Part shown: positions 15,503 through 44,426 of the stretch, in pieces
Layout of the letters: every line of letters begins with the position of its first letter
Numbering within the stretch: position 1 is the first letter of the stretch
UHGV virus genome: UHGV-0008871
Strand: one strand, 5' to 3'
DNA from: a virus
DNA: 47,120 nucleotides
Position numbers and translations under genes: made by a program
Notes under the pieces: model-generated
Seen by the model: the letters and a program-made list of their open reading frames with translations, nothing else
What the model was told of the DNA's origin: nothing
Databases searched by the model: none

Positions 15503-15577
15503 GGGTCAGTCGTATAAAGGTCATTACGGAAGGCTGTTAACCTTCTTATCGTGGTTCGAGTCCACGCTGTCCCGCCA
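15503..15577 (+). tRNA. Phage-encoded tRNA, anticodon GUU (Asn) by manual fold; slightly non-canonical
   Basis: Hand-folded cloverleaf: acceptor gggtcag/ctgtccc (one mismatch), anticodon stem gaagg/ccttc, loop ctGTTaa, T-arm cgtgg-ttcgagt-ccacg, CCA encoded; D-stem only 3 bp. Confidence 0.5.
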
Positions 15578-15582
15578 AACAT

Positions 15583-15658
15583 GCTGTTTTAGCTCCAATG
15601 GTAGAGCGGTCGCCTTGTAAGCGAATGGGTAGCGGTTCAAGTCCGTTAAACAGCACCA
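15583..15658 (+). tRNA. Phage-encoded tRNA, anticodon UGU (Thr) by manual fold
   Basis: Perfect 7-bp acceptor gctgttt/aaacagc, D-stem gctc/gagc, anticodon loop ctTGTaa, T-loop ttcaagt, CCA encoded. Confidence 0.65.
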
Positions 15659-33466: not shown

Positions 33467-34500
33467 GATATTATGATATTGAGATAACCATTCCTGCTGA
33501 AGGTGCCTCTCCGGAAAGAACGATAAAATACAGTAGCCATAAGAACGGAGTTTACAACCCCGGCGCCCTGATGATTGAGTTTGATATCCTCAGGTACGGT
33601 GAATCGACTCCCCAGGGCGAAACTCACCTGACCATCTGGGGTATTGGCCCAAAAGAAATGCAGCAGGCTCGCCAGAATTTTTTTGGCAAAAAAATTAAAA
33701 TATTCCTTGGGATGAAAGACGGGCTGCCATTGGCTGGCAAGGTTACCGCACCAAAACTGGTATTGGATGGCGTGATAAATCAGGTCTTTGGTAACTGGCA
33801 GGGTATTGAGTTACGACTTGACTTCATAATCGTGGTTGGTCCTGTCCAGAACGTGCCAAATAACAAACCCGTACCCCTTCCTTTAACCTTTGACTGGAAG
33901 GAGGGGCAGAAGCTTTCTGTAGCCCTCACGCAGTGTTTTATGAACATCAGAGGGTATACGTTCAATATCAACATAAGCGACCGGCTAATCCTTAATCATT
34001 ACCGGGGGCTGTTTTGTGATGACATTGTCACCCTGGCCAAGGACCTTAATGCTTTTTCACGTTCCAGAATTCGCGATAGCGGGTACTCTGGTGTAGAGAT
34101 CGCAATAGTGAATGGTAATGAGATCCGGGTATGGGATAACGATTATGATAACCACCCGGATAAGACTTCTGTTTCCAGCGCCGTAGCCAGAAGCAACAGC
34201 CCAACCCAAATAGATTTCAAGGATTTGATAGGGCAGCCGACATGGGTGGCATTTAACACAATCAGCATGGCGTGCGTAATGCGCGGTGATATTCAGGTTG
34301 GCGATCACATCCTGATGCCTAAAAAAAGCACTCCGTTGATACAGGCCTCTTCGTATTCTCAGTATCGAGAAGACTCTGCCTTTACTGGCGACTTTATTGT
34401 GAACTCCGTTCGCCTGTTAGGGAATAGCAGGCAACCAACGGCAGAGGCATGGGTAACAATTATTGAGGCTTCCCCTTTCATTAAGGCAGGTAGTGCATGA
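33463..34500 (+). CDS. Putative baseplate hub / tail protein (345 aa)
   Basis: Position upstream of the spike-like and J-like baseplate genes. Confidence 0.45.
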   Translation: MRYYDIEITIPAEGASPERTIKYSSHKNGVYNPGALMIEFDILRYGESTPQGETHLTIWGIGPKEMQQARQNFFGKKIKIFLGMKDGLPLAGKVTAPKLVLDGVINQVFGNWQGIELRLDFIIVVGPVQNVPNNKPVPLPLTFDWKEGQKLSVALTQCFMNIRGYTFNINISDRLILNHYRGLFCDDIVTLAKDLNAFSRSRIRDSGYSGVEIAIVNGNEIRVWDNDYDNHPDKTSVSSAVARSNSPTQIDFKDLIGQPTWVAFNTISMACVMRGDIQVGDHILMPKKSTPLIQASSYSQYREDSAFTGDFIVNSVRLLGNSRQPTAEAWVTIIEASPFIKAGSA

Positions 34501-35213
34501 GCATCGACAACAAGCTTAATTTTGCCTCAAGCATGAACAGGTTTACTGAAAGAAAGATTGAAAATGCGCTTCAAAAATCAGGGAAAGTTCTTCCGGCGAG
34601 CGTGGTTAAGCAAACTGGGAATATGATCACCGTCTCCTTCGAGCTAAGGGATATCCCATATGTTTTGCCGCAAGTGACTATCCCCTTATTTGGCCCTCAA
34701 TATATTCGTTACCCTATGCAGCCGGGAGATAAGGGGATTGTTATCCCCGCAGATACTTACATTGGCGGGGTTAGCGGTCAGGGAGGCGGCATTGCAGATA
34801 TGACTCCGCCAGCAAACTTAAGCGCCCTCGTTTTTTTGCCGATCAGTAATACCGAGTGGCAGGGTGTCGACGGACAGGTGGTGACGGTATACGGTCCGGA
34901 GGGTGTAACGCTGCGCGACAGCGGCAACAACACGACGTTTCTCCTGAAGCCTGACAGCATCGCTATTTCCACACCTGACAGCTTCACCGTCACCGTTGGC
35001 GGGACAGTTTTTTCACTGACCGGTAGCAAATGGAGCCTTTCAGGAGAGGCAGGGCATCTGCAGGATTCAGTGGCCAGTACCAGCCCGGCAATCATGCACG
35101 CCGGATGGCAGTCGCTTCTGGCCTGGCTTAACAGCCATGAGCATTCAAACGGCAACGATGGAAATGATACCGGGGGGCCGACTTCAACGTATAACGGGAG
35201 TATCACCGAGTGA
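34497..35213 (+). CDS. Putative baseplate spike (gpV-like) protein (238 aa)
   Basis: Size and position; Gly-rich beta segments. Confidence 0.4.
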   Translation: MSIDNKLNFASSMNRFTERKIENALQKSGKVLPASVVKQTGNMITVSFELRDIPYVLPQVTIPLFGPQYIRYPMQPGDKGIVIPADTYIGGVSGQGGGIADMTPPANLSALVFLPISNTEWQGVDGQVVTVYGPEGVTLRDSGNNTTFLLKPDSIAISTPDSFTVTVGGTVFSLTGSKWSLSGEAGHLQDSVASTSPAIMHAGWQSLLAWLNSHEHSNGNDGNDTGGPTSTYNGSITE

Positions 35214-35542
35214 GAACCTATGGCCGAAACTCTGAGGGGAAGTGGGTCCTGGTGGAAACCGACGAATATGGGTTTAATGACTCGGTGTATTTGACGACCC
35301 TGATCCAGAATCTGAAACTGGCGCCGCAGGAGTCGCCATTTTATGCGAACAACGGAATCCCGGCCGCCGGGTCGGTGATCCAGCAAATCCTGCCGACGTA
35401 TTACGTAAACCGTATTCAGAAACAGTTCAGCCAGTATTTTTCCTCGCTGCAGATTGCGCTGATCAGCGACGACCCGCCTGTTTATAACATCTCGGCAATC
35501 ACAAATGCAGGTTCAAAAATAATTACACAGGTGGCCGTATGA
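35210..35542 (+). CDS. Putative baseplate wedge protein (110 aa)
   Basis: Small ORF immediately before the J-like gene. Confidence 0.4.
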   Translation: MRTYGRNSEGKWVLVETDEYGFNDSVYLTTLIQNLKLAPQESPFYANNGIPAAGSVIQQILPTYYVNRIQKQFSQYFSSLQIALISDDPPVYNISAITNAGSKIITQVAV

Positions 35543-36957
35543 GCGATTTACCAGTCAGCTATACGTCAGCAGGCCCGGTTCCTCTGACGCCGGAAGAGCT
35601 ACGAGCACAGCTCGTTTCTCAGGCAATTGCGCTATCTCCGGGACTCACAACTGATTTGCCTGGATCTCTGATTGAGGACGTGGCCAGTACCGATGTCGGC
35701 GCGCTCATCGTTTGTGATCAAGCAAGGGTTGACCTGATTAACTCGGTGGGGCCACTAAAGGCTAACCTGGCCATGCTGGAGCTTCTCGCACAGCAGGCTG
35801 GTATTCCTGGGCAGAAAACGGCTGGCACAACAACAGTCCCGGTTCAGTTTTCCGGCCCCGCGGGATTTGTTATCCCACAGGGGTTTATTGTTTCTGATGG
35901 GACCTATACCTATTCAGTCAGTGATGCGACGATTATCTCGTCGTCTGGAGTATCTGCCAGCGTATCATGCGAGGGAACGGAGACCGGGACCTGGGCGGTG
36001 CCGGTAAATACGGTTAACCAGATCATATCCAGTCTACCGTCTGACGTCACCATCACCTGCACCAACCCGATCGCCGGCACTCCGGGTGCTGACCCGGAAA
36101 CGAACTATCAGTTTCGTGATCGCGTATGGCAGGCGCAGATGGCCACCGTTCAGGGATATCCTGGATTTATCCGGCAATATCTCACCAGCCTTGATAACGT
36201 GCAGGCGCGCCTGGTTTCTGTCATTCAGGACGGGGATAAATGGATAGTCATGTGTGCCGGCGGTGATATTTACGATATTGCTGGCGCGCTCTATAAGTCT
36301 GCGGGGGATATCAGCCGGCTGAAAGGGTGTTCACTGAACGTAACGGGGATCACGAATGCAAATCCTGGTGTCGTCAGCACAGACCTGACTCATGGTTACA
36401 CTGACGGCCAGGTTATCCGGATCACTGGCGTTACCGGGATGACGGGTATTAATGACGTCCCTCTGACCGTGACGGTACTGTCTCCTCACACGTTTTCCAT
36501 CGGGATTGACACCACGTCATCCGGGACCTGGGGAGGCGGCGGCGAGGTGACACCGAACGTCAGAAACAATACCGTGACGGTGAATGACTGGCCTGATAAC
36601 TACGTGATCCCGTTCGTGACGCCATTGCTGCAGCGGGTCACTGTGACGTATCAGTGGGGGACAGAAAGTGTTAATTACCTGACAGATGCCACGGTCGCCT
36701 CTCTGGTCTCGGCGCCTACGATTCAGTATGTGAACGGCATATTCGCCGGGAAACCGCTGAACGTTAACAACCTGAAAGACGCATTCTTACAGGCGATTAA
36801 CTCGACAATCGACATGGGGCTGATCAGCACTTTAAACGTCGTGGTCACCATCAATGGTGTGATAACACCACCGGATGCCGGGACGAATATCATCAGCGGC
36901 GATAAGTTCAGTTATTTTTATATCGCGTCGGATGGCGTGATCGTAACAGGGGCGTAG
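35539..36957 (+). CDS. Baseplate J-like protein (472 aa)
   Basis: Size and N-terminal pattern typical of baseplate J family; position before the fibre genes. Confidence 0.55.
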   Translation: MSDLPVSYTSAGPVPLTPEELRAQLVSQAIALSPGLTTDLPGSLIEDVASTDVGALIVCDQARVDLINSVGPLKANLAMLELLAQQAGIPGQKTAGTTTVPVQFSGPAGFVIPQGFIVSDGTYTYSVSDATIISSSGVSASVSCEGTETGTWAVPVNTVNQIISSLPSDVTITCTNPIAGTPGADPETNYQFRDRVWQAQMATVQGYPGFIRQYLTSLDNVQARLVSVIQDGDKWIVMCAGGDIYDIAGALYKSAGDISRLKGCSLNVTGITNANPGVVSTDLTHGYTDGQVIRITGVTGMTGINDVPLTVTVLSPHTFSIGIDTTSSGTWGGGGEVTPNVRNNTVTVNDWPDNYVIPFVTPLLQRVTVTYQWGTESVNYLTDATVASLVSAPTIQYVNGIFAGKPLNVNNLKDAFLQAINSTIDMGLISTLNVVVTINGVITPPDAGTNIISGDKFSYFYIASDGVIVTGA

Positions 36958-36958
36958 C

Positions 36959-37663
36959 ATGCTGGACGATATCATCCGGTCGTATATGTATACGCAATAC
37001 AACGACGATGAAAATCTGCGGGCGTTTTTTACTGCGTATAACTCGATGGCGCAGGGCATTTATGACTGGATGGTTAATGCCAACCTGCCGATTTTCATCG
37101 GTGACTACAACACCGGAGATCAGCTCCGGTGGATTGCCCATGGCATCTATGGCGTTTTGCCGCCGGTGATTTCCAGCAGCGATCAGCAGGAGATAGGCCC
37201 ATATAACACCTTCGAATTTAACCAGCTGGCATTCAATGAGTACCGGGTGATTGACCAGTCAAACCAGGTTGTTGTCTCTGATGACCTTTTTAAGCGGATC
37301 ATGACCTGGAATTTTTACAAAGGTGACGGCTTCTATTTCTCTATCCCATGGATAAAGCGGCGTATTCTGCGGTTCCTTTTGGGAGTGAATGGCACCGACA
37401 TTCTCAACGACCAGCGATGGAGTATCTCGATCCAGTTTGTGGATGGCGGTATCGTGATTTCCATCTATAAAGGGCGCCGCATGTTCACGCGGAGCGCTAT
37501 CTACAATGCATCGGCCTATAACTCCAGGAAGTACAACCAGAAGGACACGGCCTTTGTGATCACTGAGGATTTCGAGTTCGCCATTTTTTTCAAGCAGGCC
37601 ATGGATAGCGGCCTGCTGCACATGCCGTTTTACCAGTCAGTCACGGTTGAGATATTTGATTAG
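36959..37663 (+). CDS. Putative baseplate/tail-fibre attachment protein (234 aa)
   Basis: Last + strand structural ORF before the tail fibre. Confidence 0.4.
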   Translation: MLDDIIRSYMYTQYNDDENLRAFFTAYNSMAQGIYDWMVNANLPIFIGDYNTGDQLRWIAHGIYGVLPPVISSSDQQEIGPYNTFEFNQLAFNEYRVIDQSNQVVVSDDLFKRIMTWNFYKGDGFYFSIPWIKRRILRFLLGVNGTDILNDQRWSISIQFVDGGIVISIYKGRRMFTRSAIYNASAYNSRKYNQKDTAFVITEDFEFAIFFKQAMDSGLLHMPFYQSVTVEIFD

Positions 37664-37915
37664 GTTTTTATCTCGATTATCTATTGTTATATACAGATGT
37701 GATTTAACGCTCTGACAAATTATATACAGCACAACTATTGATAAAAACAAAATGGATGACATTTTTATCATATCTATTGGCGGCATTCCTTGCTGAAAAA
37801 GAAATCCAAATAAAATAATAAGCAAGGCGCACGAAAGGAGTATTAATAAAGTAGATAGAGTTCCTAAAAGTATTTTTAAAATAGCAATAGAAGCATTATT
37901 CATAATATTCACCAT
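37637..37915 (-). CDS. Small two-TM membrane protein encoded by an AT-rich reverse-oriented insert in the tail operon (92 aa)
   Basis: Only minus-strand gene within ~25 kb of + strand structural genes; local GC far below flanks; two hydrophobic helices (ILKILLGTLSTLLILLSCALLIILFGFLF and SSILFLSIVVLYIICQSV). Confidence 0.6.
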   Translation of the reverse strand: MVNIMNNASIAILKILLGTLSTLLILLSCALLIILFGFLFQQGMPPIDMIKMSSILFLSIVVLYIICQSVKSHLYITIDNRDKNLIKYLNRD

Positions 37916-37964
37916 TTAAAAGGCCGCGCTTGCGGTTTTTTTATTGCCTAATCCCGGAGGATAC

Positions 37965-40900
37965 ATGGCACTAACCCTTTTGGCTACAAACAACGCAGAA
38001 AGCACGCTGGCTTCTGCTATCAGCGCAACCGACACGTCGCTGATCGTTAGCGCTGGAACTGGTGCCGAGTTCCCTGATGCTGTGGCAGGCGAGAGTTACT
38101 TTAAGCTCACTCTCACCGATGCCGCCACCGGCTCACAGGTTGAGATCGTGAACGTGACAGCTAAGGCCGGAGACATCTTCACGATTGAACGTGCGCAAGA
38201 AGGAACGCTGGCGCGTGCGTGGGCGGCCAACGACATGGTTGCCAACATGATGACGGCGGATACGCTGAACATTATCGCTCAATATGCCCAGCAGGCAGCT
38301 GCATCAGCAGATCAGGCAATTGAGGCTGCTAATAACGCCTCTGAATACGCAAAGAACAAATACACATTCTATAAGACTGCCAGCGATCCTGATGGCACCA
38401 TTGCAGGGTTGGCAGCAACTACTGACGGCCAGTCGTTCTGGGTAGCTCAGGGGCCAGATGCGCTTTCTGCTGCATGGCAGTATCAAAACAATGCTGGCGT
38501 GGCCGTGTTGCAGGCCAAGCAGCCAGGGACAGCGGCCATAACAGGGACAATCCGCGAGTTTCCGACGCTGGCTGCGGCGCAGGCAGACGCAGCTGCGGGT
38601 AATATACCGGTGGGATCAACTGCTTATTATCGCAGCTCAGATGACAATAATCTTTCAATTGAGGTTATCAATACCGCTGGTACGTTGGTAGCAACCGGAA
38701 GAAAAATTCCAGCGTATTCCGCTTTGCGTAGAGGCAACATTTTATTCGACGCATTTAATGAATATTCCTCAAGCCTTTTAACATTCGCTAACTGGGATTG
38801 GTATAAAGGCGCTACGCCAACATTTTCTACTACTGATGTTAATTTGCCGCTTCCAACACCTGTTATTCAAGCTTCTGGTGTAACATCGTTTGATAAATAT
38901 TACGATGTGTCAAAATTACAGGTAAAACCAGGAGACACTTTAGCTTTCTCTGTTTTGGTATGGTTCGAGAACGCTGGAGGCAAGTTACAGATTTATTGGC
39001 TTGATTCAGCAGGAGTAACCATCACTACAGGGGAGGCCTCTCCACTGGTTGCTGGTATATCTTCGCCGGTTGTGGTCATTGCTGTGCCATCTGGCGCATC
39101 ATCCATACGAATTCGGGTGCAAAACACTGTGTCAGGGGCGTTCAAAATCGGTGCCTATGCCGCAGCTATTGGTGATGTTACTCCTGAATTCACAAGGTCT
39201 TTCCCTTCAAAAGCGTACCAGGAGGCATTGGGTACCCCTGATAACCTCGTGTACGATCCTTTTGGCGAGATGCTTTCCGTTCGCCCTAAGCAAGGACTCC
39301 CAGCAGGCGTGGTTGACGCCATGAGTTACGCAGGAACATTGATTCAGAACAGCGCAAATTCACCATGGGGTAAGACCGGGATCCAAAACACGTCAGGAGT
39401 TGGTGCTGATCGTATTATTTCTCTCAGTTCGATGGGGGTTAAGCCGGGAGACACAATCACTGTCCGTCTGGCTGCATGGTTCGCGTCAACGGGTGGCACG
39501 TTTCAGGTTTTCTGTCGTAATGCATCCGGAGTACTTTCTTCGGCAACTATTGCCGCATCAGCATCCGGCTTTAATGATGGAAGTACCACGCTGACAATAC
39601 CAGCATCAACGACATACCTTACGCTTCGCGCATCAGGGGCTATGGTCAAGGAGCTGGTTGCCATAGGTGTAGCTTTCGGACGATCTCGCCCTGAGTTTAT
39701 TTACGGTAGCCTTCCAGCAGAGTATTCAGGATACCAGCGCCAGCAGATTAACCTGTGGCCTGATCCCTGGTATCGCCGCTACGAGTGCGGGGAAACGTGT
39801 ATTGATGGTTGGGGTCCTGCTCAAGTAGCAGGGGTTTCACTACCAGCATATGTTGCGGATTATTCTGGCAGCCCGTTTCTTAGGAAAAAATCTCTGATTA
39901 TCCCAGTAGGTGGTGGTCAGACGGATATTAACATTTCAGCAAAGCGGCTTGGACTGCGTGCTGGAGATTCGCTGACAGTAGCGCTGGGTGTGGTATCGTC
40001 TCAGGCAATCAACGTGGCAGCATATTTCCGGACGGCTAGCGGGACTGTTATTAGTGACAGTTCGTCTCAGTTGTTCCAGTTCCCAACCCAGCAATATCAG
40101 ACTCTGGTTCGCACAATAGCTATCACCCAGACTATTGTTGATACGGCTGGATATCTGCAAATCCGCCTTATGAATGGGCAGACTGTTGGCGCTGCAGGTG
40201 TTTATGTTGTTGCCAGGGGGCTCTTTGTTGGGAATGGCTCTCCTGTACTGAGTGATGATACGTACCGACAGGATGTCGATTACACAACTTCCAGAGCATT
40301 CACGTTAAATCAGGATTCACTCAGAGAGACACATAAGCGCCTGATGAACAGGCGGCTTTCTCAGTCAGCAACACTGGTAACAGCGCACATTGGCGATAGC
40401 TGGACTCACCTGTGGAACCGATGGAGCGGAATTTTTGCCGGAAAAATGCAGGCTGACTATGGCAGTGCAGGTATCGGCTATATCGGATTTGGCTATCCGT
40501 CTGAGGCGGGTTTCGGGCAGTATAACGGCAATATACTTGGTCAGATAACTTTGACCAAAACAGGAACATGGACGCCGACATATGCGGCAGCACAGAGCGC
40601 AGATATTTGTAGCGTCTCGTCTTCTGATACCACCGCTACTTTCAGGGCGAACGGTATACCGGCAAATGCATCGTCAGTCCGCCTTTTTGCTAAACCTCAG
40701 GGGAGTGTTAAATACAGCACAGATGGTGGAGTTAACTGGACAACTATCGACCTGAGCACGTTCACTGACCTTGCGGTTGTCAGCCTCACGGTACCGGCAA
40801 CAGCTTTCAATATCTGGTTCAGTCCGGTATCAGGAACCGTTGAACTGTACGGTCTGGATGTGCAGACCGCGACAGATGGTGTCCGGTCTCACAAGCTGGG

Positions 40901-41354
40901 TGCGACGGGGAGTTCTGCTCAACAATGGGCGGCGCAGGTTACCAGCGCAACATGGAAAGCAGCATTCACCGCGCTGGCCCCCAATCTGGTGACAATTCTG
41001 CATGGGACCAATGACCAGACATCATCCCGTGATCCATCCGCGTTTGCTGCCGATATTCAGACGATAATCACAGCAGTTCGCACTGCATGCCCGTTGGCTG
41101 ATGTTCTGGTGATCATGCCATGTGAAAACCAGAGGAATAACAATGTGGCAATGGCGGCGTATGCGTCTGTTGTACGGGATGTTTGTGCGCTAAACAGGGT
41201 GGCTTATCACAATCTCCAGATTGACTACGGAGACAAGCCATCTGATTACGCATCGACATCTCCACGCAACTGGTTCAATGCTGATGGAATCCATCCTGAC
41301 CCTGCAACTGGAGGTGGGCTGCCGATCGTTTCTGCTGTTTTGAAGTTAATGTAA
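37965..41354 (+). CDS. Long tail fibre: conserved N-terminal anchor domain, three internal ~110-aa repeats, C-terminal SGNH/GDSL-type esterase-like domain (1129 aa from Met at 37965)
   Basis: RBS ggagg before ATG 37965; SGNH blocks HIGDSWT, HGTND and DGIHPD in the last ~330 aa; N-terminus homologous to the second fibre. Confidence 0.75.
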   Translation: MALTLLATNNAESTLASAISATDTSLIVSAGTGAEFPDAVAGESYFKLTLTDAATGSQVEIVNVTAKAGDIFTIERAQEGTLARAWAANDMVANMMTADTLNIIAQYAQQAAASADQAIEAANNASEYAKNKYTFYKTASDPDGTIAGLAATTDGQSFWVAQGPDALSAAWQYQNNAGVAVLQAKQPGTAAITGTIREFPTLAAAQADAAAGNIPVGSTAYYRSSDDNNLSIEVINTAGTLVATGRKIPAYSALRRGNILFDAFNEYSSSLLTFANWDWYKGATPTFSTTDVNLPLPTPVIQASGVTSFDKYYDVSKLQVKPGDTLAFSVLVWFENAGGKLQIYWLDSAGVTITTGEASPLVAGISSPVVVIAVPSGASSIRIRVQNTVSGAFKIGAYAAAIGDVTPEFTRSFPSKAYQEALGTPDNLVYDPFGEMLSVRPKQGLPAGVVDAMSYAGTLIQNSANSPWGKTGIQNTSGVGADRIISLSSMGVKPGDTITVRLAAWFASTGGTFQVFCRNASGVLSSATIAASASGFNDGSTTLTIPASTTYLTLRASGAMVKELVAIGVAFGRSRPEFIYGSLPAEYSGYQRQQINLWPDPWYRRYECGETCIDGWGPAQVAGVSLPAYVADYSGSPFLRKKSLIIPVGGGQTDINISAKRLGLRAGDSLTVALGVVSSQAINVAAYFRTASGTVISDSSSQLFQFPTQQYQTLVRTIAITQTIVDTAGYLQIRLMNGQTVGAAGVYVVARGLFVGNGSPVLSDDTYRQDVDYTTSRAFTLNQDSLRETHKRLMNRRLSQSATLVTAHIGDSWTHLWNRWSGIFAGKMQADYGSAGIGYIGFGYPSEAGFGQYNGNILGQITLTKTGTWTPTYAAAQSADICSVSSSDTTATFRANGIPANASSVRLFAKPQGSVKYSTDGGVNWTTIDLSTFTDLAVVSLTVPATAFNIWFSPVSGTVELYGLDVQTATDGVRSHKLGATGSSAQQWAAQVTSATWKAAFTALAPNLVTILHGTNDQTSSRDPSAFAADIQTIITAVRTACPLADVLVIMPCENQRNNNVAMAAYASVVRDVCALNRVAYHNLQIDYGDKPSDYASTSPRNWFNADGIHPDPATGGGLPIVSAVLKLM

Positions 41355-41387
41355 AACTCCTACATTGATCTTCCCTCACAACAATAA

Positions 41388-41407
41388 TACTGTGTGTTTG
41401 TACAGTA
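41388..41407 (+). promoter_or_regulatory. LexA (SOS) box taCTGTgtgtttgtACAGta within the promoter of the downstream two-gene cassette
   Basis: Perfect CTGT-N8-ACAG palindrome with TA flanks, 18 nt upstream of a gggaggg RBS; overlaps a TATTAT -10-like hexamer. Confidence 0.7.
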
Positions 41408-41425
41408 TTATTGGGAGGGCAGATC

Positions 41426-41665
41426 ATGCTTCGACAGTCAGACATCGCAGCGGCGTTCCGCGAGTCGGTATTGCGCAGTTCCAAGGGGTTCCAGTACCTT
41501 CACACCCGCGACTTCGTTACCGCGCTGCGCCGGCGCGGCATCCATTTTTCCGAGGTGGAGGCGAACTCCTGGATCGCACGCGAGCAAACGTATTTCGTCG
41601 ACAAAACGGCAGAGCATAGTGAAAACTGCCTGTGGATGATGGCCAACATGGGGAGGATTCTGTAA
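41426..41665 (+). CDS. Hypothetical SOS-regulated protein (79 aa)
   Basis: Strong RBS gggaggg 7 nt upstream; LexA box in the promoter; TAATG coupling to the next gene. Confidence 0.55.
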   Translation: MLRQSDIAAAFRESVLRSSKGFQYLHTRDFVTALRRRGIHFSEVEANSWIAREQTYFVDKTAEHSENCLWMMANMGRIL

Positions 41666-41982
41666 TGGGCTTTCCTTCACCCGCGACGGATTACGTTGAG
41701 CAGCGACTGTCTGTCAACTCGATCTGCAATGTTGGGCCTAATACGTTGCTCTTCGAACGGTCTGGCGGTTACGTTGTGCTGGATATCTCCCTGAAGCCAA
41801 AGCAGGGTAGCCAACTACTTATACAGCACGGCGGCGGGACGGAGCTTGCCACGCTGAGAGGAAGGTCGCTGATTACTGAAGATGGTGAAGCGATCGAGGG
41901 CGAAGCCCTGGACGATGTTACTGTCATCGGCGTCGTGACGTTTACTATCTGCGATGTTCGTTCCGATAATTCTATTATTTAA
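41665..41982 (+). CDS. UmuD'-like protein lacking a recognisable serine-protease motif (105 aa)
   Basis: N-terminus MGFPSPATDYVEQRLSVN matches the UmuD/MucA post-cleavage N-terminus (GFPSPAADYVEQRIDLN); QLLIQH and VIGVV also echo UmuD; no GDSM motif. Confidence 0.55.
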   Translation: MGFPSPATDYVEQRLSVNSICNVGPNTLLFERSGGYVVLDISLKPKQGSQLLIQHGGGTELATLRGRSLITEDGEAIEGEALDDVTVIGVVTFTICDVRSDNSII

Positions 41983-41993
41983 CTGGGGTATAT

Positions 41994-43025
41994 ATGGCGC
42001 TGAAGCTATTAGCCAATAATAACGCAAAGAGTGTTCTCGCTGCGGGTATTAGCGCGTCCGCTACCGTTATTACCGTGGGTACTGGAGCGGGGTCTTTATT
42101 CCCGTCCCCTGTATCAGGGCAGAGTTATTTCAAATTAACGATAACCGACGCGGCCACGAAAACAATTTCTGAAATTATGCACGTCACGTCTGTATCCGGT
42201 GACGTGATGACAGTAATTCGTGGTCAGGAAGGAACTACGGCACGTGTATGGTCAACGAATGACATTGTTGCGAATTTAATGACCGCCGGGTCTTTATTAT
42301 CTTTCCTGCAGATCAGCAATAACCTGTCAGAAATTAAAGATGCCGGTGATGATGCGGTAAATGAAGCCCGTTATAACCTCGGAATATCTGATTCCTCTGG
42401 TTTTGTCGGGCGTTCTCTTGGCGCACCAAAAACTTTCTATACAAATGGAACTTATACTCGCTCACCGCTGGCCCGTTATGCAAAAGTAACGTTGGTCGGA
42501 GGTGGCGGCGGCGGTGGCGGGTGCCAGGCATCTAATAACACCGAAACCTTTTCCGGTGCCGGCGGCGGCGCGGGTGCGACCATTATCGTATGGGTTGACC
42601 TGTCTGCTGCCAGTTCTTACGCGATTACTGTCGGCAAGGGTGGTAAGGGCGGAGTTGGCGCAGTAAGTGGTGCGGATGGTGGTGCTACCTCGTTTGCCAG
42701 CCTGTTCTCAGCTCCTGGCGGGAAAGGCGGCGTGAAGTCAGGCGTGTCCAATACCGCCGGCGGCGCCGGAGGTACGGCGGCGACCGGAGATATCAGGATC
42801 AACGGTGGTACCGGCTCAGATGGACAGACAGGCTCAAGCCTTCTGACGGGCAACGGCGGGGCGTCGTATTTTGGCGGCGGTGGCCGGGCGGGTTCTCAGG
42901 CCGGTATTGCTGGCGCAGCTCCCGGATCCGGTGGTGGTGGCGCGTATGACCTTGGGTTTACCGGTACGGCATTTACCGGTGGTGATGGTGCTACTGGCAT
43001 GGCGATCGTGGAAGAATTCGCGTAA
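41994..43025 (+). CDS. Second tail fibre: same N-terminal anchor domain as the long fibre, Gly-rich C-terminal domain (343 aa)
   Basis: N-terminal ~100 aa alignable by eye with fibre 1; C-terminal half is Gly-rich (GGGGGGG, GGxGG repeats). Confidence 0.7.
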   Translation: MALKLLANNNAKSVLAAGISASATVITVGTGAGSLFPSPVSGQSYFKLTITDAATKTISEIMHVTSVSGDVMTVIRGQEGTTARVWSTNDIVANLMTAGSLLSFLQISNNLSEIKDAGDDAVNEARYNLGISDSSGFVGRSLGAPKTFYTNGTYTRSPLARYAKVTLVGGGGGGGGCQASNNTETFSGAGGGAGATIIVWVDLSAASSYAITVGKGGKGGVGAVSGADGGATSFASLFSAPGGKGGVKSGVSNTAGGAGGTAATGDIRINGGTGSDGQTGSSLLTGNGGASYFGGGGRAGSQAGIAGAAPGSGGGGAYDLGFTGTAFTGGDGATGMAIVEEFA

Positions 43026-43029
43026 TGGC

Positions 43030-44226
43030 TTACACTCCTGCACGACCATCGATGTAATCAGCCCACCATTGCATCATTTCTCTGCGCTTATCGAGATACT
43101 GAGCATGGTTGTAAATTCCACGTACAGATCCGCCGTTGGCATGTGCCAGCTGCACTTCAATAGCGTCAGCAGGCCATTCGTGCTCGTTCATAATCGTGCT
43201 GAATTCATGCCTGAATCCGTGACCGCTTTCCAGACCTTCATAGCCGATTTGTTTGATCACAAGCAATACCGCGTTCTCGCAGATTGGCTTCTTCTTATCG
43301 TTGCGCCCGGCAAAAACAAACTCTGAGACTGGTTTGGTGATTGAGCTTAGCGTAGTGAGAAGTTCAACCACCTGGTCTGACATCGGGACCACATGAATTT
43401 TGCGTCCCTTCATCACACTGGCGTCGATGGTGATAATCCTGTTTTCAAAATCGACGTTCTTCCATAGCATGGAACGAAGCTCTTTTGTTCTTAGGGCTGT
43501 GTAGCGTAAAACTTTGGTCGCAATGAGCGATACGATACTTCCTGAAAATGTTGCAAGTGCTTTGTTGAATGCCGGGATCTGGTCGGCAGGTAAAAACGGG
43601 AAGTTCTTCTTGCGGTATCCCTTCATGGCGTCAGCAAGGTCAGGTGCCGGGTTATATTTAGCCCTACCAGTGACAATAGCGTAACGGAAAACCTCGCCGC
43701 ATCTTCTGCGGGCTTTGTTGGCTCGCTCCATTGCACCGCGATCTTCAAATCTGCGGATTACTTCCAGCAGTTGCATCGGCTCAATATCCTGAATTTCAAG
43801 GCCGCCGATGATAGGTAAAATGTCGTCATCAAACATTTTTGCAAGTTCAGTCGCATACCCTACTGACCATACTTGCTTCTTGTGCTCGTACCATTCCTTG
43901 TAAATCGCACTAAAGGAATTGTTGTTAGACGAAGCCTTTTTCGCCTTTACCGGATCGATGCCAACCGAGATGTCTTTCCTCGCAGTCCATGCCTTATCCC
44001 TTGCTTCCTGCAAAGTCATAAGCGGATATTTTCCGACGGTCAGGATTTTCTCCTTACCGTCAATCTTGTAGCGAAGCTGCCATACCTTTTTCCCTGACAC
44101 AGGGACATAAAGGTACAGGCCATTACCATCGAGAAGGCGGTATGGTTTTTCTTTCGGCTTTGCTGCTTCAATCTGCTTAACGGTGAGCATGGGTAAAAAT
44201 CCGGTGGGTAAAATTATTTTATCCAC
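43030..44226 (-). CDS. intS: Tyrosine integrase, P4/IntS-type (398 aa; alternative start at 44190)
   Basis: Adjacent to the tRNA-Arg gene; catalytic HGFRH…Y region; matches my recollection of E. coli IntS (CPS-53/KplE1). Confidence 0.85.
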   Translation of the reverse strand: MDKIILPTGFLPMLTVKQIEAAKPKEKPYRLLDGNGLYLYVPVSGKKVWQLRYKIDGKEKILTVGKYPLMTLQEARDKAWTARKDISVGIDPVKAKKASSNNNSFSAIYKEWYEHKKQVWSVGYATELAKMFDDDILPIIGGLEIQDIEPMQLLEVIRRFEDRGAMERANKARRRCGEVFRYAIVTGRAKYNPAPDLADAMKGYRKKNFPFLPADQIPAFNKALATFSGSIVSLIATKVLRYTALRTKELRSMLWKNVDFENRIITIDASVMKGRKIHVVPMSDQVVELLTTLSSITKPVSEFVFAGRNDKKKPICENAVLLVIKQIGYEGLESGHGFRHEFSTIMNEHEWPADAIEVQLAHANGGSVRGIYNHAQYLDKRREMMQWWADYIDGRAGV

Positions 44227-44351: not shown

Positions 44352-44426
44352 TGGTGTCCCCTGCAGGAATCGAACCTGCAATTAGCCCTTAGGAGGGGCT
44401 CGTTATATCCATTTAACTAAGAGGAC
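44352..44426 (-). tRNA. argW: tRNA-Arg (anticodon CCU), prophage integration target
   Basis: Hand-folded cloverleaf from the minus strand: GTCCTCTTAGTTAAATGGATATAACGAGCCCCTCCTAAGGGCTAATTGCAGGTTCGATTCCTGCAGGGGACACCA; last 15 nt repeated at 442-456. Confidence 0.85.

Follow-up and report, generated by a model that had tools for sequence, protein, structure and literature searches.

We analysed UHGV-0008871, a DNA sequence of 47,120 nucleotides (nt) that we call the window throughout. It holds a prophage of about 43.6 kb between E. coli chromosomal flanks (yfdC, mlaA and tRNA-Arg(CCT)), apparently a complete temperate myophage of the Felixviridae type integrated at argW. Our subject is a pair of tail-fibre genes in this prophage, fibre 1 and fibre 2, which we assign to two lineages, type A and type B. 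The initial annotation had proposed, by eye, that the two fibres share a homologous N-terminal anchor of about 100 residues, that they then diverge into an esterase-bearing and a Gly-rich fibre, and that an SOS-controlled cassette lies exactly between them. The fibre genes and their parts are as follows.

37965-41354, plus strand: fibre 1 (type A, 1129 amino acids (aa)), with the anchor, a mosaic shaft whose middle domains are uncharacterised and a predicted C-terminal SGNH/GDSL esterase; matches phrog_38670, tail fiber.
37965-38264, plus strand: anchor domain A (residues 1 to about 100), conserved among type A fibres; matches 8jov_1.
40392-41354, plus strand: putative SGNH esterase part of fibre 1; it starts with catalytic block I (GDSW), runs to the C-terminus and has a large insert that separates block I from block II.
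41994-43025, plus strand: fibre 2 (type B, 343 aa), in which a short helical neck joins the anchor to a polyglycine-rich tip; the final late-strand gene, followed by the integrase.
41994-42293, plus strand: anchor domain B (residues 1 to about 100), conserved among type B fibres; Foldseek match to 8jov_1.
42429-43025, plus strand: putative receptor-binding tip of fibre 2, a polyglycine-rich domain.

The proposed homology of the N-termini held in a formal alignment. BLASTP aligned them without gaps over 125 residues with 63 identities (50%), 68% positives and an E value of 2e-33, a similarity far beyond chance, and found no second significant segment between the two proteins (next best E 0.046). 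In successive 25-residue windows the identity was 64, 52, 48 and 64% and then fell to 24%, which places the end of the homologous part at about residue 100. The ATG of fibre 1 sits 6 nt downstream of a GGAGG ribosome-binding site, so that a longer, TTG-initiated open reading frame (ORF) is unnecessary. At the DNA level the anchors are 56% identical, with 34% identity at third codon positions and a longest exact run of 8 nt, and the synonymous divergence (dS) between them is saturated (Nei-Gojobori, first 100 codons). Because third positions match so poorly and dS is saturated, the duplication is old, and anchors A and B are old paralogues that have diverged. A recent duplication and ongoing gene conversion between the anchors were both considered, and rejected on the third-position identity and the short shared run.

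We searched for relatives of the shared domain of known structure. Both N-termini matched chain 1 of Protein Data Bank (PDB) entry 8JOV with phmmer (fibre 1, E 5.7e-9; fibre 2, E 4.4e-7). The entry is titled "Portal-tail complex of phage GP4"; by its chain counts, 116 of the 439 residues of this chain were modelled, in 18 copies, so that the matching domain is the particle-fixed part of the GP4 fibre. We read the 18 chains as six trimers. An AlphaFold2 (AF2) model of fibre 2 had a predicted local distance difference test score (pLDDT) of 88 overall, with block means of 80-93 across residues 11-90, and Foldseek matched its N-terminal domain to 8jov_1 with a template modelling (TM) score of 0.70, 35% identity and a probability of 1.0. 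Weaker Foldseek matches were to the N-terminal parts of the tailspikes AP22 gp54, LKA1 gp49 and phi297 gp61 (podophage). For fibre 1 we infer the same fold from its 50% identity to fibre 2. The early description of the shared part as an anchor thus agrees with these matches, and the domain, which has the fold of the virion-attached N-terminal domain of the GP4 tail fibre, is predicted to be an attachment module.

The domain is widespread. A full HMMER scan found it in about 10,200 representative clusters at E ≤ 0.001, and in most of the top 150 clusters the match begins at or near residue 1, with a few in which it begins further in or that hold two to three copies. Both fibres match PHROG families 6427, 8469, 30299 and 25419 (E 1e-12 to 1e-28), and Pfam has no family for this domain. 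Residues N9-N10-A11, G31, G33, F36-P37, E60-I61, R76 and Q78-E79 are invariant across distant lineages.

Beyond the anchor, the domain content of the two proteins supports the initial annotation in that their distal parts are unrelated. Residues 973-1114 of fibre 1 match Lipase_GDSL_2 (PF13472; E 6e-14, 53.4 bits against a cutoff of 32.9), and residues 152-340 of fibre 2 match Gly_rich_2 (PF21722; E 2e-15, 57.8 bits against a cutoff of 24.3). Fibre 1 carries the motifs GDSW (residue 810), GATGSS (979), GTND (1014) and DGIHP (1107), which we read as SGNH blocks I, II, III and V with the catalytic Ser, Gly, Asn and His. The tip of fibre 2, modelled with a pLDDT >90, was matched by Foldseek to the fibre of the cyanophage Pam3, a minimal myophage (7ypx_A, E 3e-8; 7yfw_a, E 4e-6), to Bxb1 tail-tip chains (9d93, E 1e-8) and to the glycine-rich domains of ALK. 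The tip is of the polyglycine-rich adhesin type, like Pam3 gp24 and S16 gp38. The orthologue of fibre 2 in Klebsiella phage RothD, gp33, was reported to be a short tail fibre whose polyglycine-rich domain is rare (PMC12629751), and the polyglycine tip is present also downstream of P2-type fibre N-termini. In several relatives, type A fibres carry polysaccharide-active domains (SGNH esterases in several E. coli loci, a pectate-lyase-like domain in locus L074), and type B tips are non-enzymatic and variable (polyglycine-rich, collar or gp53-like C). On the virion, fibre 1 would be a serotype-specific fibre able to bind a surface polysaccharide and remove its acetyl groups, and fibre 2 would be a second adhesin. 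The dual receptor specificity that had been proposed is plausible, since an esterase and a polyglycine adhesin-type tip differ so clearly, and a variable enzymatic fibre with a second adhesin would be the simplest reading.

The closest cultured phages are the Klebsiella phages vB_Kpn_Chronis, RothC and RothD, with 93-95% nucleotide identity in matched parts that cover 49-53% of the query (positions 34400-43100). This group was recently placed in the new family Felixviridae (10.1101/2024.12.02.626457; PMC12629751); Yersinia phages that are more distantly related can be induced with mitomycin and are myoviruses in the electron microscope (PMC9224151). The 234-aa protein encoded before the fibres is 98% identical to its homologue in the RothD/Chronis group, and the gene order is the same. 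The conserved structural core of RothD ends at 20,241 bp (PMC12629751), which is the exact end of the homologue of that gene, and the fibre region starts beyond it. The Klebsiella phages share the layout of long fibre, cassette, short fibre and integrase; they differ from the window in the distal domains of their long fibres (640 and 849 aa, no SGNH match). The preprint flagged gp28 as a likely receptor-binding protein (10.1101/2024.12.02.626457), and the main text of the RothD paper makes no mention of "anchor", "N-terminal" or two receptor-binding proteins (PMC12629751), so that it does not remark on the shared anchor.

We assessed the conservation of the two fibres in 80 IMG/VR loci fetched via the 234-aa protein, in which ORFs were scored. 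A close group of 37 loci, defined by a 234-aa protein at least 94% identical to that of the window, includes the cultured, infectious phages RothC and Chronis as well as an almost identical E. coli prophage. All 27 of the close loci that extend far enough encode both fibre types, with one type A and one type B gene each, and the ten in which type A alone was found all break off less than 750 nt beyond the A gene. Type A fibres of this group are 640-1259 aa long with an anchor 79-100% identical to that of fibre 1, and type B fibres are 279-368 aa long with an anchor 83-100% identical to that of fibre 2. In RothC both anchors are near-identical to those of the window, and in Chronis anchor A is 100% and anchor B 93% identical. 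Mean pairwise identity among the 33 unique type A sequences is 95-98% up to residue 100, then 67%, and below 10% by about alignment column 280; among the 23 unique type B sequences it is 86-96%, drops at about residue 100 and is then 40-60%. The sequence beyond residue ~100 is thus swapped among relatives, and each anchor is conserved in its own lineage. Anchor A has a ratio of nonsynonymous to synonymous divergence (dN/dS; Nei-Gojobori, first 100 codons) of 0.062 and anchor B one of 0.054, and inside each lineage dS reaches 2-3, so that both anchors are under strong purifying selection. On evolutionary grounds, this weakens the reading of either gene as a non-expressed remnant.

Annotated genomes do not always display these genes in full. 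In an E. coli prophage that is 99% identical to the window (L002, NZ_CP074680.1), the annotation pipeline PGAP splits fibre 1 into two fragments, one of them a pseudogene, despite an intact ORF of 1136 aa. In the same genome, fibre 2 is annotated from an internal codon (272 aa) and loses about 70 anchor residues. Many database entries named "glycine-rich domain-containing protein" are shortened in the same way (clusters P0006-P0009). Because the annotated starts of fibre 2 omit anchor residues, the shared anchor is hidden from protein-level searches.

Relatives with a 234-aa protein of about 66% identity encode a single fibre of 265-498 aa, in the gene order fibre, cassette, integrase. Their existence indicates that this type of anchor can dock on the baseplate alone. 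Single-fibre anchors are about equidistant from the two lineages (61-69% identity to A, 63-72% to B); as to the ancestral type, a neighbour-joining tree puts them nearer B and gene order puts the single fibre where A sits. Two-fibre arrangements recur elsewhere: loci L067-L074 again pair a long fibre with a short one, the two anchors of L082 are very similar, and the virulent phage PdC23 has fibres of 317 and 667 aa back to back, directly after a DUF2612 gene. A tblastn search of cultured phages found the anchor at 168 places in 136 genomes, with two copies in the GP4-like Ralstonia phages, Bcep22/DC1, Itty13, PdC23 and Chronis. Paired anchors are closer within a lineage than between lineages, from which we conclude that the anchor was duplicated repeatedly; a single ancient duplication shared with GP4 was rejected for the same reason. 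Independent duplications are found in myophages (the window group, L067-L074, PdC23, L082) and podophages (GP4), and two copies occur also in Pseudomonas phage Itty13 and in the Bcep22-like podophages of Burkholderia.

GP4 (MH638294, locus L085) is a Ralstonia podophage. Its fibre has the same N-terminal domain (35-40% identity, TM 0.70), and it has two adjacent fibre genes, of 439 aa (the 8JOV chain) and 295 aa, whose products are 47% identical over 102 residues and then diverge. In this, GP4 mirrors the layout of the window, as do other phages. GP4 differs in that its anchor docks on a tail or adaptor structure and not on the baseplate wedge of a contractile tail. Its two anchors are also closer to each other than to either window anchor, so the GP4 pair represents a separate duplication. 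The 295-aa paralogue is missing from the solved structure, and the PDB copy that we searched holds the 439-aa protein only. In its C-terminal part, the 295-aa protein is similar to the cyanophage A-1(L) long tail fibre (8kec, E 2e-10).

Between fibre 1 and fibre 2 lies the SOS cassette, placed as the initial annotation had it. Its elements, and a hairpin that precedes fibre 1, are as follows.

37918-37946, plus strand: GC hairpin with seven consecutive T behind it, located 20 nt before the start codon of fibre 1; terminator-like on both strands.
41390-41409, plus strand: perfect LexA box TACTGTGTGTTTGTACAGTA, between fibre 1 and fibre 2.
41426-41665, plus strand: 79-aa ORF, the first gene of the SOS cassette; phrog_3893, function unknown.
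41665-41982, plus strand: 105-aa UmuD'/HumD-like ORF, whose start overlaps the preceding stop (TAATG).

The LexA box overlaps a possible -10 hexamer, found by eye and unscored. The 105-aa protein matches the UmuD-like family phrog_3469 (E 9e-46), and the best NCBIfam match is the P1 HumD family, below its cutoff (E 7e-13). The protein starts at the residue at which processed UmuD' of E. coli begins (MGFPSPATDYVEQ...), and it seems to have neither the catalytic Ser nor the Lys of the S24 peptidases. The cassette, whole or in part, is present in 35 related loci with one or two fibres, and 29 of these 35 have a CTGT-N8-ACAG box within 150 nt upstream. It might serve as a translesion-synthesis accessory or, with the 79-aa protein, as an SOS-triggered induction or antirepressor module.

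Parts of this region are shared with other elements. Positions 38327-41960 of the window, from about residue 121 of fibre 1 to its end and on through the LexA-box cassette, are 98.3-98.5% identical in nucleotide sequence to a block in at least 12 of the E. coli genomes listed, in which PGAP annotates the N-terminal part as a prophage tail fibre N-terminal domain of the Stf type (PF08400). At the one such locus that we inspected (L084, NZ_OZ501679.1, at the ompW/trp site), the block follows J and Lom and is fused to the Stf-type N-terminus; a tail fibre assembly gene, left over from the older arrangement, comes after it. The block shared with lambdoid prophages thus comprises about the distal 90% of fibre 1 and the cassette, and its left junction falls directly after the anchor. 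This arrangement indicates that the distal part of the fibre travels together with the SOS cassette, as a single block, between the side-fibre slot of a siphophage and the long-fibre slot of this myophage.

A second block comprises the 79-aa gene, the HumD-like gene and fibre 2. We found it in a 47,948-bp circular "plasmid" of E. coli 2023CK-01482 (L087, NZ_CP141750.1), which looks like a circular phage genome that was assembled as a plasmid. There the block is 94% identical in nucleotide sequence to the window, its anchor B is 99% identical, and it is followed by an integrase remnant and then by a different integrase. The baseplate of this element differs (a 410-aa J/gp47 protein and a 195-aa DUF2612 protein), and BLASTP found no match between its DUF2612 wedge protein and the 234-aa protein of the window. 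Its own fibres, of 431 aa (Gly-rich tip) and 683 aa (SGNH), have other N-termini.

We compared the baseplate genes upstream of the fibres with those of known contractile tails. The prophage has a contractile-tail gene set with a sheath (phrog_205), a hub (phrog_196), a J-like wedge protein and a tape measure with a transglycosylase part. The two genes nearest to the fibres are as follows.

35539-36957, plus strand: baseplate J-like wedge protein, 472 aa, putative inner wedge; Pfam Baseplate_J, E 6e-12; phrog_6, baseplate wedge.
36959-37663, plus strand: 234-aa protein, the last gene of the structural core; putative outer wedge and fibre docking platform, at the position of Pam3 gp23.

The order of the products (236 aa, 92 aa, hub 345 aa, 238 aa, 110 aa, J-like 472 aa, 234 aa, fibre) matches Pam3 gp17-gp24. 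We take the position of the 234-aa gene to be also that of P2 gpI and Mu gp48, and some homologues of its product are named DUF2612. In Pam3 the corresponding order is tube initiator, plug, hub, spike, sheath initiator, J-like wedge, outer wedge and fibre, and each outer wedge subunit gp23 has two fibre docking sites, which are filled by 12 copies of one fibre, alternating up and down (PMC9942802; 7YPX, 7YFW). The fibre gp24 of Pam3 is also the structural match of the fibre 2 tip noted above. Pam3 differs from the window prophage in that one fibre gene fills both sites, where the prophage has two paralogous genes. A second candidate docking element is found in the J-like protein, in which residues 275-338 form an inserted beta-barrel like that of E1-FCCH (Pfam E1_FCCH, E 4e-14; PDB matches UBA1 and UBA6). 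The long tail fibre of cyanophage A-1(L) is held by an insertion domain of its wedge protein (PMC10966104), which is why we consider the insertion here.

From these comparisons we consider it probable, with some reserve, that both fibres are structural and that each docks directly via its own anchor. Both would be trimeric components of the virion, and the wedge protein on which they dock would probably be the 234-aa or the J-like protein. The narrower claim that each wedge offers two distinct docking sites is made by analogy, and we advance it tentatively. Given a baseplate colinear with that of Pam3, whose outer wedge subunits offer two non-equivalent sites, a type A fibre alongside a type B fibre on every wedge (6 + 6) would be the most likely arrangement; in single-fibre relatives one fibre may fill both sites, and in two-fibre phages A and B may take one site each. 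Divergence of the anchors to ~50% identity could tie each fibre to its own site, stop the formation of mixed trimers, or both. We hold as the more doubtful part of this proposal that the anchors have been specialised for two non-equivalent wedge positions in a fixed 6 + 6 arrangement, with anchor duplication as a general and repeated route to a second specificity that needs no branching adaptor.

Several points weigh against this proposal. Incorporation of both fibres into virions is deduced from their conservation alone. The two-site analogy is drawn from gene order, from a match of the 92-aa protein to the Pam3_gp18 plug that falls below threshold (22.3 bits against a cutoff of 24.2) and from the similarity of the fibre tips. 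The Pam3 fibre docks by an alpha-helical N-terminal domain with disulfides (PMC9942802), unlike the beta-rich anchor of the window fibres. The AF2 model of the 234-aa protein, built with 29 homologues, has a pLDDT of 45 and is unusable, and phmmer and profile searches of the PDB and Pfam scans gave no credible match for its family. The hairpin with its T-run (-11.9 kcal/mol, z -2.3) lies right before fibre 1, so that late transcription of the fibre region would need read-through or a separate promoter; fibre 2 lies behind the SOS cassette. Finally, as anchor B lies beside an integrase remnant in L087, a phage with a different baseplate, the block of cassette and fibre 2 can travel as a passenger, and its presence alone is no proof that it functions in each genome.

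A serious rival to two distinct sites, although one we think unlikely, is that both anchors use one docking site and compete for it, giving a random mix of A and B on each particle, and that the anchors diverged only against mixed, non-productive trimers. The initial annotation had named attachment at the same site as one of its two options. The homology of the anchors and their common invariant residues across distant lineages are what this would predict, as is the near-equal distance of single-fibre anchors from A and B, and several independent duplications are easiest to explain if a new copy is able to dock immediately at the site already there. Set against this, A and B differ at roughly every second anchor position, although the lineages themselves are 86-98% conserved, which is more than the blocking of mixed trimers obviously needs, and the colinear Pam3 baseplate already has two distinct sites per wedge.

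We regard it as very improbable that fibre 1 is the one structural fibre and that fibre 2, which would close a mobile block of three genes under LexA control (79 aa, HumD-like, fibre 2), is perhaps absent from virions. Fibre 2 does start close behind the HumD-like gene, 11 nt downstream in the window and 11-14 nt across the window and its relatives; the block does stand in a different phage backbone beside an integrase remnant; and fibre 2 is present in 73 complete E. coli genomes, compared with 43 for the type A anchor. Yet an anchor B kept at a dN/dS of 0.05 over deep synonymous divergence would make little sense without a conserved docking partner, and the swapping of type B tips (Gly-rich, collar, gp53-like C) is as expected of an active host-range determinant. 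PdC23 and L067-L074 moreover have a short fibre without that cassette arrangement, and single-fibre relatives depend on a fibre of the short type.

Direct docking of both fibres also differs from the other option of the initial annotation, a branched fibre in which one protein docks on the baseplate and the other on the first, as in G7C or the Klebsiella KP32-type phages: the anchor-branch mode is the best documented two-receptor-binding-protein solution in small phages, but its second protein lacks the anchor and docks, by a short conserved peptide, on a T4gp10-like domain of the first (PMC6872550), both window fibres carry the full anchor, single-fibre relatives show this anchor docking on the baseplate by itself, and searches at the sequence level (Pfam, PHROGs and PDB phmmer) recovered no T4gp10-like branching domain, so that branching fits worst among the attachment options and is the least likely of the explanations considered here. 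The likeness to anchor-branch systems (G7C gp66/gp63.1; Klebsiella KP32- and KP34-type phages; PMC6872550) lies elsewhere, in two receptor-binding proteins per virion (presumed for the window), conserved N-terminal modules, horizontal exchange of the distal domains, and domains with enzymatic activity on surface polysaccharide (predicted for the window). Dual receptor binding by anchor duplication is thus a variant distinct from the anchor-branch mode and a known strategy, not a new kind of system. G7C reportedly pairs an esterase spike, gp63.1, which is said to be an SGNH esterase, with a second receptor-binding protein.

The fibre region is flanked by further features of the prophage. Between the last baseplate gene and fibre 1 (37637-37946) lies a low-GC stretch (43% GC over 37001-38000) with a 92-aa hydrophobic ORF on the minus strand that has no family match. 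Related loci have similar hydrophobic ORFs, Arc-like genes, antirepressor-like genes or acyltransferases at the same position, which makes the gap look like a variable cargo (moron) slot. One more gene marks where the prophage ends on the right.

43030-44226, minus strand: IntS-type integrase, adjoining tRNA-Arg (44352-44426).

A 16-nt direct repeat, GGAATCGAACCTGCAA, a piece of tRNA-Arg, is found at 750 and 44366 and probably represents the attL and attR sites. Together with the intact late genes, these repeats suggest that the prophage at argW is complete. The prophage also carries tRNA-Asn(GTT) and tRNA-Thr(TGT) genes at 15503-15658.

Dual receptor-binding systems set the host range of phages and are the main handle for host-range engineering. 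Here the second specificity seems to come from duplication of the anchor itself, an arrangement that recurs in unrelated phages, and the boundary for domain swaps is clean at about residue 100 in both fibres. Two points deserve attention in this respect, the GP4 paralogue not seen in the solved structure and the frequent trimming of the fibre 2 anchor by annotation pipelines. If both fibres are indeed on the particle, a widespread family of prophages of gut Enterobacteriaceae would have two independently exchangeable slots, one for a long, serotype-specific enzymatic fibre and one for a short adhesin.

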